A DNA stretch of 63,736 nucleotides, the filler included, from an uncultured Methanosarcinales archaeon (GTDB taxonomy: Archaea; Nanobdellota; Nanobdellia; Woesearchaeales; CAZXZL01), in assembly GCA_964645415.1 (NCBI GenBank). It is 4 parts of 4 records of this genome, joined end to end, with 100 filler letters (N's around TTAATTAATTAA, not from the genome) between each part and the next. Parts side by side here need not be neighbours in the genome. Positions count along the whole stretch, not along the records: positions 19,018 to 36,997 come from CAZXZL010000019.1; 3 more parts are not named here. One strand, 5' to 3'. The position numbers were made by a program. Positions 24,901 through 30,900 of the stretch are shown in pieces; position 1 is the first letter of the stretch, and every line of letters begins with the position of its first letter.

Positions 24901-27900
24901 ATGGATTCTACAAAACTAACAAAAATAAACATCTTCGTAAATATTTTGTTATTTGTAATTAAATTAGTTGCAAGTATAATCACAAACAGTATTTCAATTA
25001 TTTCTGATACATTAAATACTTTTTTAGATATTATTACAGCAATAATTTCTAATTTTGCAGTTAAAATTTCCGGTAAAGATCCTGATGAAGACCATAGGTT
25101 TGGTCATAGTCAAGCAGAACCTATCTCTGCATTAATAATTGCAATATTGGCTGCTGTGATTGGTTTTGAAGTAATTAGGAGTTCAATAATTCGTATAATT
25201 AACTTTCAAGAAACTATTTTAAGTCAAGAAGCAATAATTATTTTAATTATTGCAATTATTTTTAAATTAATAATCTCAATAACATATTATAAATTTGGAA
25301 AAAAGCTTAATAGTCCTGTAATAGAAGCAATAGGTTTTGATTCTAGAAATGATGTTCTATCTACATTAATTGCCTTAGTTGGTTTTTTACTTTCCACAAC
25401 CGATTATTATTTTTTCGATAGTATCTTTGGATTAATCATTGGTTTATTTATTTTGAAATCCTCTTATGATATGTCGAGAAAGAATTTGAAGTACCTAATG
25501 GGAAGAATTCCGGAGGATGAAGAAGTATATAAAGTAAAAAACATTGTACAAGAATATGATGATGTTTTAGAAATAAATGATATTTTAGGAAAGTATGATG
25601 GTAATAATTTGCTTTTTGAGATAGATATTAGTATAAATGGTGATATGAGTTCATTTGAAAGTTGTAATTTATCTAATAAAATTATCTCTAAACTGGAAAA
25701 AAAAGATAATATATCAAAAGTTTTTGTAAAAATGAAGCCTATTACTAAAAATACGAAAAAATAAAAACATTTATAAAAGAAGAGTATTCTAATAAAATAT
25801 TAAATAATTAGGTGAATTATTCTAAAAATTAAAAATTATACGAAATTTCATTCTATTTTTCTTAAACAAAAAAGGAGGTGTAAATATGGAAGGAACAGTT
25901 AAATTCTTCGACTCAAGGAAAGGATTTGGATTTATTACTGTAGAAGGAGACAAAGATTACTTTGTCCATATTAGTGATATCGAAGAAGGAGTAAGACTTA
26001 ATGACGGAGATCAAGTAGCTTTTGATGTTGATGAAGGCGAAAGAGGTCCAAAAGCTGTTAATGTCACATTAGCTTAATACTAATTGATTTATCAGGTTAA
26101 AGTTTTATAAAATTTTTATTATTTTTATTATTTTCTTCTTTTTCCAATTTAAATACAAAACTTAATTCTTATTTTTTATTGTTCTTATTTTTCTAGATTA
26201 ATTTATAAGAAATGGGGTTGCTGGGATTTGAACCCAGATTGATACCACCCCATGGTACGAGGATGCCAAGTTACCCTACAACCCCTTTGGGTTAAAACTT
26301 AATCTTATAAAAAAAGACAGGATTTAAATATTTCCCGTTTTTTCTATTAAAAGAAATCTTTATAAACACTGTGGTTTTTCTCACAAATGTGTGATTAGAT
26401 AGGTGATCTTATGGATACTCTTTACAAAGTTAATCAAAATGAATTAATAAAAAAAGTAGCTGAAGAACTAAAAAAAGAGATTGAGATGCCAGAATGGGCT
26501 CAATTTGTAAAAACTGGTGTAAACAAAGAAAGACCGCCATTAAATGAAGATTGGTGGTATATTAGAGCAGCTTCAATTCTTAGAACTGCTTATTTAAAAG
26601 GACCAATTGGTACTTCTAGGTTAAGAAAGAAATATAGTTCTAAAAGAAATATTGGAAATAGACCAGATAAAGTTTATCCTTCTGGTGGAAAAATAATTAG
26701 AACAATTCTTCAGCAACTTGAAGAAGCAGAATTACTACGTTTTAAAGATAGTGGTAAAAGAAAAGGTAGAATTGCAACAAAAAAAGGTAGTGATCTTTTA
26801 AAAGACTCTTCAAAAGAAATATCTGATTAAATTAAATTTTAAGAATTATTTAACTGGTGATTATTATGAGAAATAAACATTTAAACTTAAAAAAGAGAAT
26901 TGCTAAAGAGAATAAAAGGACAAAATGGGCTCCTTTTTGGGTTAGTTTTAAGAAATATGGTATGAAGAAAGGAAGAAAAGTACATCCTTCAAGATATACT
27001 ACATCCAAAAAACATTGGAGAAGAGGAAAGTCGAGAGTAAATTAATTATTTTTATTATATATCATAAATTAAGGTGTTAATCATGCAAAGAGTTTATAAC
27101 GTACCATTAAAGGATTATTTTTTGAAAAAACCAAGAAAGAAAAGAGCTAAAGGAGCTGTTAATGGATTAAAAAAGTTTCTAAAAAAGAATACTCGAAAAG
27201 ATAATATTTTATTATCTAAAAAACTCAATAATAAAATCTGGGAGAGAGGAATTAAAAATCCTCCGCGAAAAATTAAAATTAAAGTTGAAATCACTGAAGA
27301 TAAAGCTTACGCGATGTTATTTGATGAAGAAGGATCTTTTGTTGATGAAGAAGATTCTAAAAAGAAATCAAAAAAATCAGATGAAGTTACTGATAAAAAA
27401 GAAGATGATACAAAAGAAAGTAAAGAAGATGATAAAGAAATAGAATCATCTAAAGAAGACTCTTCAAAATCAGAAAGTAAAAAATCCAGTAAAAAAGACA
27501 AATCTGATAGTAAAAAGAAGAAATCAAAAAGTAAAAAGTCTGATAAAAAAAGTAAAAAGAAGAAATCAAAATCATCTAAGAAAAAGAAATCAGATGATAA
27601 AAAGAAGAAATCTAGTAAAAAGAATAAGTCTAAAAGTAAAAAATCCAGTAAAAAAGATAAATCAGATAGTAAAAAAAGTAAATCCGGTAGTAAAAAGAAG
27701 AAATCAAAATCATCTAAGAAAAAGAAATCAGATGATAAAGATAAGAAATCTAGTAAAAAGAGTAAGTCTAAAAGTAAAAAATCCAGTAAAAAAAGTAAAT
27801 CTGATAGTAAAAAGAAGAAATCAAAATCATCCAAGAAAAAGAAATCAGATGATGAAAAGAAGAAATCATCTAGTAAAAAATCTAAAAAAGATTCAAAAAG

Positions 27901-30900
27901 TAACAAAAAAAATAAAAAACAAGATTGATTTTTATTTTTATTATTTAAATTATGTTTTTTTGGGGCAATAGGGTAGCTTGGCCATCCTCTGAGCTTTGGG
28001 GGCTTGTGACCCCGGTTCGAATCCGGGTTGCCCCATCTTATTAATTATTACGAGGTGTTTTTTTAATATGGCAAAACCAATGAATTTTCCTAATTCAAGA
28101 CGTTTAGGATCAAGATATGGAAAAAGAATTCGAGATTTACATGGCAATCAGGAGAAAAAACAAAGGAGTAAATACAAATGTCCTTATTGTAGAAAGAAAT
28201 CTGTTAAAAGACTTTCAGTAGGTATCTGGAGATGTAGATCTTGTGATAAAAAGTTTACTTCTAAAGCCTATGAAGTTAAAAGTTAGGTGATATTATGGTA
28301 GAATATAAATGCCTTTTCTGTGGAAAAGTTGTAGAAGAAGAACATATTGAAAGGAGAATTCACTGTCCTTATTGTGGAAAAAAAGTATTATATAAACCAC
28401 AAGTTGTTACTACACATTGGAAGGCTAGGTAATTTAGAAAAATGTTTAAATTAACTTATGAATTACCAACTGAAAAACCATTAAGAGATGTTATTGAATC
28501 TGAGATAGATGGTTTTAATTGGAAACGTCATAAGATTGATTTAATTAAAAAAGAAGATTCAATTTTACTTAAGTCTAAATCGACTGACATTAAGGCAATG
28601 AAGGCTGGAATTAATTCAATTATAAGTTTACTTGACATTTATGAAAAGGTCAAAGAATTAAAATGAATAATGAAAAAGTAATTTCTGAAATACAAAAGTA
28701 TCAACGTTTTTTACAACAAATTAAACTACAGAAACAAAATTTATCTATTAAAAAAGATGAATCATCTAATGCTATTGATGAATTAGATAAAACAAATAAA
28801 TCGTATAAATTAATAGGAGATGTTTTAATAGAAAAAGATAGTCAGTCTTTAAAAAAAGAAATTTCTTCAAGAATTGATAATATAAATGAACAATTAGAAT
28901 CTCTTAATAGGAATGAAGAAAAAATACAAAATAAACTAAGTAAACTACAAAAAGACCTTCGAAACGTAGATGATAATAATTAGAGGTGGTATAAATGGAA
29001 AAAGAAATTAGTTTTAAGGAAGTTTTTATGGAAATTGATGAAGTTTTATGTGACCCAACTTCTTCTAAAAATGTAAAGAAAATTTGTAAAGAAATCAAAA
29101 AGACTTTATCTGATGATTCAAAAAAACCTGCATTAAAGGTTGATAGAGCAATTCAACAACTTGAGGAATTATGTGAAGATGTTAATGTTGATTCATTTAC
29201 TCGTATGAAACTTTATAATTTATCTGGTTCTTTAGAAAGTGTCTTGAGAAATTAGATTTTTTGTTTTTATAAAACTTAAAAATCATATTTTCTCTAGTTT
29301 TTCTTTTTTACTACTTCTTTGACAATTATATTATTTGGTACATAAATAATATCTTCATTTTCTGTTTTCATTATTGTTTCTGTTAATGTAATTTTTTCGA
29401 TTTTTCCTTTAATATTTTTCACTTCTATTTCATCTCCAATATCATACATTTTATTTTTTGTAATTACATAAAAAGAAGAAAAATTAGTTAGTGCAAATTT
29501 AATTACAAATAATATAGATACAGCAATAACAATCATTATAATGATTACTATTGAATTAATTATAGTTGTTGTTATACCTAATTGAGATATTGCTAGAATA
29601 ATAAAAATAAAATTAATAATATAATTTATAAAATTTGAAATTGTTTTTTCTAAGGATAAATTAATACCTGCAAAATTTGCAAGATCGTCTAATTGTATTT
29701 TATTTAAACTTGAAGAAACTATTTTACCAACTATTTTACCAATGATGATTCCAGATAATAAAATAATAAATGCAATTAGAATATCATTAATTACAGAAAG
29801 AATTATATGGTCATTTAAATAGGTTAATATAAATTCAAAATCAAAAATCATTTTATCACCTTAAATTATCTAATAATTTTTTAAATTTGTCTTTTGCCTT
29901 TGATTTTTTAGCAGGATAAGTTTGAATATGACATTTTACATGTAAACAATTTCCTTCTTCTGTTAGATTTAATTTATCTTCTAAAAACCAATCTCTTTTA
30001 TTAAATCTTAAGTATAAATAATTATTATCATCTATTCTCTCATCTAAACTTTCTTCTATTCTTTTTATTTCTTCTTTGTTAATCTCTTTCATAATTTCAT
30101 AAAATACATCGAAAGGATATTTTTTAAATACTTTATAAGTCGTTTTTGATTTATTTTCACCAAATTCCCCTTCGAAATTATAAGTTTCAATTTCATAAAA
30201 TTTCTTTTTTTTCTTCTCTTCAAGATTTTTCAACCTTTCTGGAAGAAATTTATTTATCTTATCTTTTACCTTTTTTTCATTACTTTTCATTGATATAGTT
30301 GATATCTCAATCCTATTGAAAATTTTTCTCATTTTTGATTTATCGACCATTATATGATAAGAAAAATGGAAAATAATATAAATTTAGTGGAATTTATTAA
30401 TTTATGAAACATAGAAAATTAATTATTTTTCTTCTTGTAGGTATTTTTGTGTTAACTCAATTATTTGGTTTATTTATTATTAATCAAAATCTGAATATTG
30501 GTCCAGATGGTGAAGCGGAGTGGGATGATTTAGCTTATGATACTGAAGTTGAAGGAGAAAGTGACTTTTATTTTATTCTAATATTTATTGTAGTTTTATT
30601 AGGTTCACTATTTTATCTGTTTTTATTTAAAAAACGTAAGTTTAATTTTATTAAAGGTTGGTATGGTTTTGCAATTTTCTTTGCTGTTTCTTTTGCATTA
30701 TATCCTTTAATTAAAAATGATTTAATTGTATTATTCATATCTTTAGTACTTGCTTATTTGAAAGTAAAAAGAAATAATTTTGTCATACATAATATTACTG
30801 AAATATTAGTATATGCTGGTGTTGCTTCTATTATGGTTCCAATGATGTCTTTAGAAGCTGTATTTAGTTTATTAATCTTAATTTCTCTTTATGATATATA

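Follow-up and report, generated by a model that had tools for sequence, protein, structure and literature searches.

The window analysed here, a stretch of 63,736 nucleotides (filler included) joined from four parts of the genome of an uncultured soda-lake archaeon placed by GTDB in the Woesearchaeales (GCA_964645415.1), carries a gene for the ribosomal protein eL31 at positions 27083-27928. The eL31 chains of archaea in the PDB are 82-95 aa long; here the core is followed by a long tail (Table 1), and its Lys/Ser-rich (K/S) repeat occupies residues 122-281 (27446-27925) and runs in frame up to the stop codon, in agreement with the survey's finding. Altogether 336 of the 600 bases of the tail lie within exact matches of at least 20 nt to another gene. 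The 72-nt core of the tail matches uS3 exactly over 74 nt and g00376 over 71 nt, and the 24-residue peptide that it encodes is identical in five unrelated proteins. The unshared first 49 codons of the tail are probably a remnant of a charged tail common across the order, as relatives carry K/E tails of 56-131 aa at the corresponding position. A protein search with the eL31 core among proteins of 154-492 aa gave 20 candidates, none with E <=0.001, and was uninformative because the genomes do hold orthologues with longer tails. The upstream eS19 is tailless here, while 17 of 28 scored relatives have eS19 tails of at least 30 aa. An Rfam search of three loci returned no hits.

Table 1 Features of the eL31 locus (positions along the window).
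Feature	Position	Strand	Basis
eS19, upstream of eL31	26411..26830	+	gene context
eL31 core, residues 1-82	27083..27328	+	PF01198 match, residues 3-71, E 1.7e-12
eL31 tail, first 49 codons, D/E/K/S-rich, unshared	27329..27475	+	no exact match of at least 20 nt to other genes' tails
eL31 K/S repeat region, patches common to uS3, uL30, g00376, FKBP and others	27476..27883	+	exact-match coverage
72-nt core of eL31 tail, encoding the 24-residue K/S/D peptide	27521..27592	+	identical runs in five proteins
eL31 internal tandem duplication, period 138 nt (46 codons)	27551..27822	+	TRF, 2.0 copies, 94% match
eL31 tail end, unshared, with stop codon	27884..27928	+	no shared patches
tRNA-Pro(tgg), directly downstream of eL31	27961..28037	+	ARAGORN

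A six-frame scan of the genome yielded 11 K/S-rich frames, among them all eight proteins listed by the survey, whose assignments of uL30, uS3, TFE-alpha, FKBP and DnaG we confirmed; g00376 belongs to the DUF7121 coiled-coil proteins (Atlas score 0.97). The blastn figures given for the eL31 tail were closely reproduced (FKBP 81%, E 9e-47; uL30 76%, E 8e-43; TFE 72%, E 3e-16). The uncalled frame proposed as the C-terminus of uS3 is plausible, since the two halves of uS3 abut over the 100-N gap exactly as they do at the second repeat junction. A 38-nt exact tail patch is also found in an unannotated linker of a 340-aa gene (C6:12143-12180), and a K/S repeat in the region of a SurA-type protein (C33) is separate, its DNA being unrelated to that of the other tails. 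The core tails are strongly basic, low-complexity terminal segments with about 50% K, about 30% S and a net charge of +33 to +57.

Near-identical low-complexity repeats might have been cross-filled by the assembler: gaps or contig ends fall inside the tails of uS3 and g00376 and the SurA region, and the whole eL31 tail is spanned by no Logan contig. Nevertheless, the tail copies differ at many sites, and in 3/3 runs an independently built Logan contig covers 27817-28300 without a single difference. Over the repeat, summed depth rises to a maximum of about 9-11 times that of the unique flank, and Logan contigs connect the uL30 core to the repeat (two runs) and the repeat to the region downstream of uL30 (one run), all of these runs coming from one study and possibly including the source sample. 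We regard an artefact as very improbable and, on the assembled DNA, take the K/S tails of this archaeon to be real. Positions 26800-27460 mostly lack Logan contig coverage, from which nothing is inferred. One loose-end sequence present in the runs could not be located in the assembly, which may thus lack another tail locus or junction.

The survey had raised the concern that low-complexity sequence in a genome of 25% G+C can look alike through composition and codon bias. Pure convergence of this kind, involving no DNA transfer, fits DnaG, the SurA region, eL32 and possibly g00129, and the relative G020 likewise has K/S-rich tracts in uS3, uL22 and DnaG. For eL31, uS3 (the part after the gap), uL30, g00376 and FKBP, on the other hand, it is rejected by both null models. 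The longest exact shared DNA in these five genes is 29-75 nt in 10/10 pairs, a length matched in 0-5/300 synonymous resamplings and 0-1/300 codon shuffles. Their tails have identical runs of 24-32 aa with 19-29 identical codons (in uS3 versus g00376, 25/25 codons are identical where 13.4 are expected), and the excess of identical synonymous codons has P <5e-6 to 4e-3 across the 10 pairs. Convergence as the whole explanation is accordingly given hardly any weight. TFE and FKBP have 30 nt exactly in common (0/300 in both nulls), and the 26 nt common to g00129 and g00376 (7/300 and 0/300) are borderline. By contrast, the longest exact match of DnaG to any tail is 10-17 nt, not beyond the null, and 0/210 nt of its tract is covered by matches of at least 20 nt. 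DnaG, which had been counted as a carrier of the cassette, thus resembles the tails in composition only, and its tract and that of the SurA region appear to have reached a K/S-like composition independently. The best reading of these comparisons is that tail pieces were copied from one to another among five or more unrelated genes, of which three encode ribosomal proteins; judged by the exact matches, TFE and the C6 linker hold a shorter shared patch and g00129 is a borderline case.

The form of the shared material differs from the single cassette in eight proteins that had been suggested: coding DNA has spread among the five genes, with short patches in two or three more, as a mosaic of patches with variable ends covering 47-89% of each core tail. 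Identity is confined to tracts with unrelated flanks, and in-frame tandem periods of 138 and 162 nt (TRF) and 159 nt, all divisible by three, occur within the tails. Copies in unrelated conserved genes keep the frame in 51/51 shared aligned blocks, even though the eL31 tail could equally be read without a stop in its +1 frame. The tails have neither a stem-loop or terminal inverted repeats nor a defined length or fixed ends of the kind seen in RPE or MITE elements; longer tail stretches form only a 7-bp stem (z -1.2 and -3.5). Because fixed ends and a hairpin are lacking and all 51 shared blocks are in frame, the tail DNA does not appear to be one bounded mobile cassette. A related proposal is that the shared core was seeded by, or moved with, a dispersed non-coding modular repeat of RPE/MITE type, the common motif being a recombination or insertion site. 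Such a repeat exists (about 80 clusters, 15 kb); its commonest 12-mer (33 counts) is the 12-mer within the most widely shared tail core, it matches the tails exactly over 16-25 nt (one copy at 85% over 54 nt), and one copy folds better than shuffles (z -3.1). The overlap is borderline, however, being reached by null tails in 4/300, 2/300, 7/300, 7/300, 9/150, 0/150 and 122/1000 cases, and the element's other modules are all missing from the tails. No hairpin is predicted for the 72-nt core (MFE 0), and no Y1 transposase was found in the genome, all of which leaves this origin unlikely.

Across the 526 aligned codons of the shared blocks we counted 50 distinct changes; 21 are synonymous and 18 non-synonymous single-base changes, where 16-25% synonymous would be expected, and all 29 residue changes lead to S, E, G, N, D or K. 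Apparent purifying selection on the shared tails is suggested by an omega of about 0.2-0.3, a value confounded by in-frame register slips between repeats (differences of K-to-K and S-to-D type) and by the seeding of blocks on 18 exact bases. A cruder estimate, with the 51 blocks over-merged into 24 columns (0.39-0.63, p 0.006-0.11), is superseded by one of 0.16-0.28.

The survey had left relatives unchecked, and the comparison divides the tails into two groups. Across the order, in Woesearchaeales-type archaea, eL31, uS3 and some TFE carry long charged tails and DnaG has a long charged linker, the eL31 and uS3 tails there being K/E-rich and near neutral, unlike the K/S tails here. A long uL30 tail was found in 0/29 relatives and 0/136 further scored loci, and uL30 in the PDB ends at the aligned position; by this distribution, the long uL30 tail is a gain of this lineage. 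The long tails of the DUF7121 protein and FKBP were most likely gained here too. Since relative G030 has a 420-aa long frame on its DUF7121 gene and FKBP tails of at least 30 aa occur in 4/29 relatives, what looks like a gain in these two proteins may be the expansion of a slot already there (the DUF7121 row of L173 was misaligned and is left out of the tail count). Donor and direction of copying are unrooted because the comparison set includes no same-family relative. An exact search of metagenome contigs with a 41-nt core gave 0 matches in a set that may lack records near this genome.

The same copying, with its own motif each time, recurs at 30 nt or more in 1/39 relatives and 4/70 further operon loci. 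Relative G018 has 56 nt exactly in common between eL31 and eS19, and L262, L267, L297 and L314 have 32-56 nt among uS3, uL22 and eL32 (synonymous null 0-6/500); in the between-genome control among relatives, 0/6000 pairs reach 30 nt. The eL31 tail DNA of G030, G021 and G032 gave weak matches against their own genomes (longest exact 13-21 nt). The genome studied here is an extreme case of tail-to-tail copying. Its tail copies are closer to one another than to orthologous regions of other genomes, in a comparison that includes no close relative. Together with the confined tracts and the identity at synonymous sites, this closeness points to ectopic gene conversion of the tail DNA. A literature search found no paper on tail-to-tail copying between unrelated genes.

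We propose, as the probable explanation, that disordered low-complexity tails evolve in concert across unrelated genes through slippage-built repeats, in-frame ectopic gene conversion and selected composition. Archaea of this type tolerate long charged tails or linkers on eL31, uS3, DnaG and some TFE. In this genome the tails would have turned K/S-rich and lengthened by in-frame tandem duplication, most likely through replication slippage. Since A-rich K/S-coding tracts resemble each other, ectopic gene conversion or template switching would then have carried patches of about 30-140 nt from gene to gene. Such copying would have homogenised the eL31 and uS3 tails, given new long tails to uL30, the DUF7121 protein and FKBP, and brought short patches to TFE and the C6 linker, with selection apparently maintaining the frame and the K/S/D composition. 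The tails may serve as general polycationic arms, resembling histone H1, that would contact RNA or DNA whatever its sequence; they would be tolerated or of slight benefit and would carry no specific signal. The genome encodes a RadA/Rad51 family member and a MutS-domain protein. Loss of mismatch repair was considered as a cause and rejected: with the MutS-domain protein present, lost anti-recombination is no evident cause, and NucS, not found here, was likewise not found in 21/40 relatives and is present in two relatives that do show sharing (G005 and G006).

The tails could instead be a selected specific tag, a K/S peptide read by a kinase, an acetylase, polyphosphate or a chaperone, through which proteins of translation, transcription and replication would be regulated or localised together. 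The identity of the 24-residue peptide in five proteins despite varying synonymous sites would agree with this, as would the lack of any K-to-R, T, I or Q change in the shared blocks and the mostly nucleic-acid-associated hosts. The tails also satisfy the definition of the PASK motif, a stretch of 20 aa that includes a Lys and in which D, E, S and K make up at least 75% (PMC12345225). Conversion alone yields identical peptides, however, and the tail motifs are genome-specific among relatives. The hosts include FKBP, a coiled-coil protein and an unannotated linker, and PPK1 and PPK2 were not found in an assembly scored 100% complete. A PASK window is present in 67/753 long ORFs of the genome, so the motif does not discriminate. 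A specific tag is therefore improbable, slightly more so than an origin in the dispersed repeat. About as unlikely as that origin is a broader synthesis, in which disordered tails on ribosomal proteins and further essential ones make up, in DPANN, a genome-wide exchanging pool and a recurrent route of protein innovation. In the present lineage a polycationic K/S tag under selection, perhaps with the dispersed repeat as its seed and the core motif of that repeat as driver of the copying, would have swept the pool, joining new proteins (uL30) and bringing ribosomes together with chaperones and transcription factors on nucleic acid.

Concerted evolution of the tails through copying, the reading we favour, would mean that low-complexity tails are by themselves enough for DNA exchange between unrelated essential genes, and that a ribosomal protein can in this way acquire a new end absent from every examined relative. 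If general in DPANN, within-genome tail similarity would reflect recombination rather than a shared signal, and phylogenies and annotations should be made with the tails trimmed off. The ribosome of this archaeon would also carry more than 100 extra positive charges, as predicted from its genes, with a testable effect.

Ectopic gene conversion of paralogues, as in rRNA operons and tufA/tufB, leaves patchwork identity that includes synonymous sites. Here, the partners are unrelated and alike only in their low-complexity tails, and the copying makes new protein ends. Lysine-rich or charged low-complexity regions on archaeal ribosomal proteins, including S3, have been described with a proposed role in nucleic-acid binding (Ntountoumi et al. 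2019, PMC6821194); those are mainly A/E/K, in contrast to the K/S composition found here, and the available text reports no DNA sharing across the tails of unrelated genes. In actinobacteria, H1-like lysine repeats occur on the unrelated DNA-binding proteins TopA, HupB/HupS, Ku and HrdB and are needed for DNA interaction in Ku and HupB (PMC7398561). As here, several unrelated proteins of one genome carry basic tails, although the actinobacterial repeats are lineage-conserved and belong to high-GC bacteria, with no DNA-level exchange described in the portion available, whereas ours are genome-specific and mostly on ribosomal and chaperone proteins. The Rickettsia palindromic elements and Methanocaldococcus coding repeats place one DNA sequence in frame in many unrelated conserved genes (PMC2229807). 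According to the available account, these are elements of 105-146 bp with stem-loops and terminal inverted repeats, also found between genes, while the tail core has no hairpin, fixed ends or full non-coding copy. Borg repeats are A-rich and in frame and build disordered segments within proteins of archaeal type (Schoelmerich et al. 2023, PMC9879509). The tails share with them in-ORF unit lengths divisible by three; in the text available, virtually all Borg repeats are locus-unique and a local origin is concluded, whereas here repeat DNA is common to several loci. Lysine-rich repeats of Plasmodium have expanded in unrelated exported proteins of an AT-rich genome and created localisation signals (PMC5207086); in the part of that work available, these are eukaryotic exported proteins with a demonstrated function, whereas that of the archaeal tails is putative.

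A six-frame scan of the genome (961 kb in 79 contigs, 25% G+C; the eL31 gene lies on contig C19) recovered 11 Lys/Ser-rich (K/S) frames: all eight proteins for which the survey's finding had claimed the same K/S repeat (eL31, uL30, uS3, TFE-alpha, an FKBP isomerase, DnaG, g00129 and g00376), two frames on C33 that flank an assembly gap in a SurA-type region, and a weak one on C14. The C33 parts probably form one protein carrying an independent K/S repeat. g00376 is a DUF7121 coiled-coil protein, and family searches assigned no family to g00129.

Composition and codon bias were weighed as the cause of the likeness in 12 segments (66 pairs): the length of the longest stretch that two segments share exactly was set against two nulls, both of 300 replicates, namely codon shuffling and resampling of synonymous codons by the tails' own usage. 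All 10 pairs among a core of five genes (eL31, the part of uS3 after its gap, uL30, g00376 and FKBP) share 29-75 nt exactly, runs that were matched in 0-5/300 resamplings and 0-1/300 shuffles, exceeding what either null explains. TFE and FKBP share 30 nt (0/300 in either null), and g00376 and g00129 share 26 nt (7/300 resamplings, 0/300 shuffles). In this 66-pair test every pair involving DnaG, the SurA segments or eL32 stayed inside the nulls, save the SurA segments with each other. Within identical runs of 24-32 residues, the same codon is used at 19-29 positions where 12.4-17.6 would be expected, and an in-frame patch of the tail core also lies in a gene on C6 (see table). Taken together, the shared runs, the excess of identical codons and the C6 patch show that tail DNA is common by descent, clearly in five genes and in part in two or three more. 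The proposed spread of coding DNA among genes stands for the core five and partly for TFE and, at the borderline, g00129, but a single cassette in all eight proteins overstates it; DnaG, although K/S-rich, drops out.

Positions of tail-related features (along the window unless a contig is named) and loci of other DPANN genomes with motifs of their own
Feature	Position or locus	Description
eL31 gene	27083-27928	199-aa extension past residue 82; 47% K, 29% S, net +57
72-nt core	27521-27592	in all five core genes; no fold predicted
Loose end	27744	contigs of metagenome runs X2 and X3 lead from tail repeat into sequence absent from the assembly
Triplet microsatellite	32272-32520	long, AAT/TAG-type, at an assembly gap; gives a poly-Asn run ending a membrane protein
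Dispersed repeat	36924-36997, 37212-37528, 54308-54574, 63479-63588	window copies
Dispersed repeat	C10:22269	directly behind TFE
Dispersed repeat	C4:9939	directly behind g00129
Tandem array	C6:31330-31654	short repeats at an assembly gap, running straight into the motif common to tails and dispersed repeat
Core patch	C6:12143-12180	38 nt exact, in frame, in the linker of a 340-aa gene; protein unannotated, N-terminal part K/R-rich
K/S/D locus (L036)	C33:5220-5775	C2H2 zinc finger, K/S/D tandem repeat, gap, more repeat, membrane anchor, SurA/rotamase domains
Own motif	L297	common to uL22, uS3 and eL32 tails
Own motif	L262, L267, L314	common to uS3 and eL32 tails
Own motif	L003/L040	common to eL31 and eS19 tails

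The shared tail material is a mosaic: exact matches of at least 20 nt to another gene cover 47-89% of each core tail, with variable ends. Internal duplications have periods of 138 nt in eL31 and 162 nt in g00376 (both by tandem repeat finding) and 159 nt in uS3, and tail codons 1-49 of eL31 are acidic and not common to the other genes. Gap-free blocks of at least 45 nt are in frame in 51/51 cases, though the eL31 tail is stop-free in its +1 frame as well. Over 526 aligned codon positions we counted 50 distinct changes (21 synonymous, 18 non-synonymous single-base and 11 multi-base replacements), giving an omega of 0.16-0.28 with 16-25% synonymous changes expected; an earlier, cruder estimate was weaker (0.39-0.63). 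Each of the 29 residue changes produces S, E, G, N, D or K. The counts suggest that tail composition is constrained, but register slips among repeats would leave the same pattern.

The region is present in three DNA runs, which may include the source sample and are all soda-lake metagenomes of a single study. Logan contigs cover 27817-28300 with zero differences in 3/3 runs, none of them spanning the whole eL31 tail, and loose contig ends in two runs match the uL30 core-to-tail junction. Summed depth peaks in the repeat at 112, 221 and 52 in the three runs, versus 10, 20 and 6 in the flank. The sequence beyond the loose end at 27744 may be the end that g00376 lacks in the assembly, or another gene with a tail. 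Dispersed through the genome are about 80 clusters, 15 kb in all, of a non-coding repeat that is built of modules and partly palindromic, often located behind tRNA genes or gene ends. Contig ends lie no more than 400 nt from 51 of the clusters, and the repeat is probably one of the chief reasons why the assembly is in so many pieces. Its commonest 12-mer is also found inside the tail core, and we keep as an alternative, not as a result, that this repeat seeded the core or moved with it. However, null tests of the overlap conflict (from 0/150 to 122/1000), the tails share no other module of the repeat, and a Y1 transposase was not found in the genome.

The 40 relatives compared belong to the same order only, every one to another family; eL31 and uS3 counts refer to the best 30 loci, taken from 38 and 40 matching genomes respectively. 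Tails occur on eL31 in 28/29 relatives (56-131 aa, K/E-rich, net -17 to +16; the remaining one is truncated where its contig ends) and on uS3 in 24/29 (at least 30 aa), a DnaG linker of 52-86 aa in 29/29, and a basic TFE tail of 40-78 aa in 7/29; these four slots are old. In six of 29 relatives (L175, L181, L189, L193, L197 and L203) the C-terminal tail of TFE-alpha is histone-H1-like, 69-78 aa long and strongly basic (net +22 to +41). For uL30, 27 of 29 relatives are tail-less, one has 10 aa and one is cut; of 138 further, partly redundant loci, 136 were scorable, with 132 tail-less and four carrying 12-20 aa. The 60 uL30-related loci with names are mostly Woesearchaeota or Nanoarchaeota, so the genome is taken to be that of a probable Woesearchaeales-type DPANN archaeon. 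In the PDB, uL30 stops at the aligned position. Among 19 DUF7121 loci, 16 have no tail, two have 13-16 aa and one row is misaligned; outside these, G030 has a 420-aa frame on its DUF7121 gene. FKBP tails have a median of about 16 aa and a maximum of 54 (here 113), and for g00129 the tail reaches 20 aa in 2/22 (here 44). Given these short or missing tails, this lineage gained its long uL30 tail and either gained or greatly expanded those on DUF7121, FKBP and g00129.

Among eL31, eS19, uS3 and FKBP tails of the relatives, 1/54 within-genome pairs shares at least 20 nt: in G018, eL31 and eS19 have 56 nt in common, with a motif unlike that of the genome under study. With operon regions added (39 genomes, 1335 within-genome pairs, including five G018 loci and four of G021, G030 and G032 chosen by own-tail searches), runs of at least 22 nt occur in four genomes (G005, G006, G018 and G020) and of at least 30 nt in one, against one and zero of 6000 between-genome control pairs. 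Another 104 operon loci, of which 77 are distinct and 70 yield one pair or more (301 pairs in total), gave four of 70 (L262, L267, the Pacearchaeota locus L297 and the Woesearchaeota locus L314) with 32-56 nt exact among uS3, uL22 and eL32 tails, matched in 0-6/500 synonymous resamplings. Tail-to-tail copying, as in G018 and the four operon loci, is thus a recurrent feature of some DPANN genomes, though a minority of them, and the motif differs from genome to genome; the rates are lower bounds because the comparison took in just a part of each genome. In G020 (L068, L345, L389), from another family, uL22, uS3 and DnaG tracts are also K/S-rich, and uL22 and uS3 share 26 nt.

As a whole scheme, it is most likely that permissive tail slots came first, that slippage then built K/S repeats, and that A-rich tracts would have been copied onto one another in frame, by ectopic conversion or template switching, homogenising old tails and extending formerly tail-less genes; the frame would be kept by homology-guided copying together with selection. 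RadA is encoded in the genome. By analogy with actinobacterial lysine repeats (PMC7398561), the tails would likely act as generic basic arms binding nucleic acid. They also fall under the PASK polyphosphate definition in PMC12345225, which would fit a polyphosphate link, but neither PPK1 nor PPK2 was found in the genome.

That archaeal ribosomal proteins carry low-complexity regions is already documented (PMC6821194), and the literature covered, with few subscription papers, held no paper on DNA common to tails of unrelated archaeal genes. RPE-type elements have palindromes and a fixed size, unlike the K/S tails (PMC2229807), and Borg repeats are unique to each locus (PMC9879509). We regard the shared tails as real, and the case for a new form of ectopic gene conversion between low-complexity tails as well supported; this genome is the extreme case in number of genes, in the uL30 gain and in its tails having become basic and K/S-rich.
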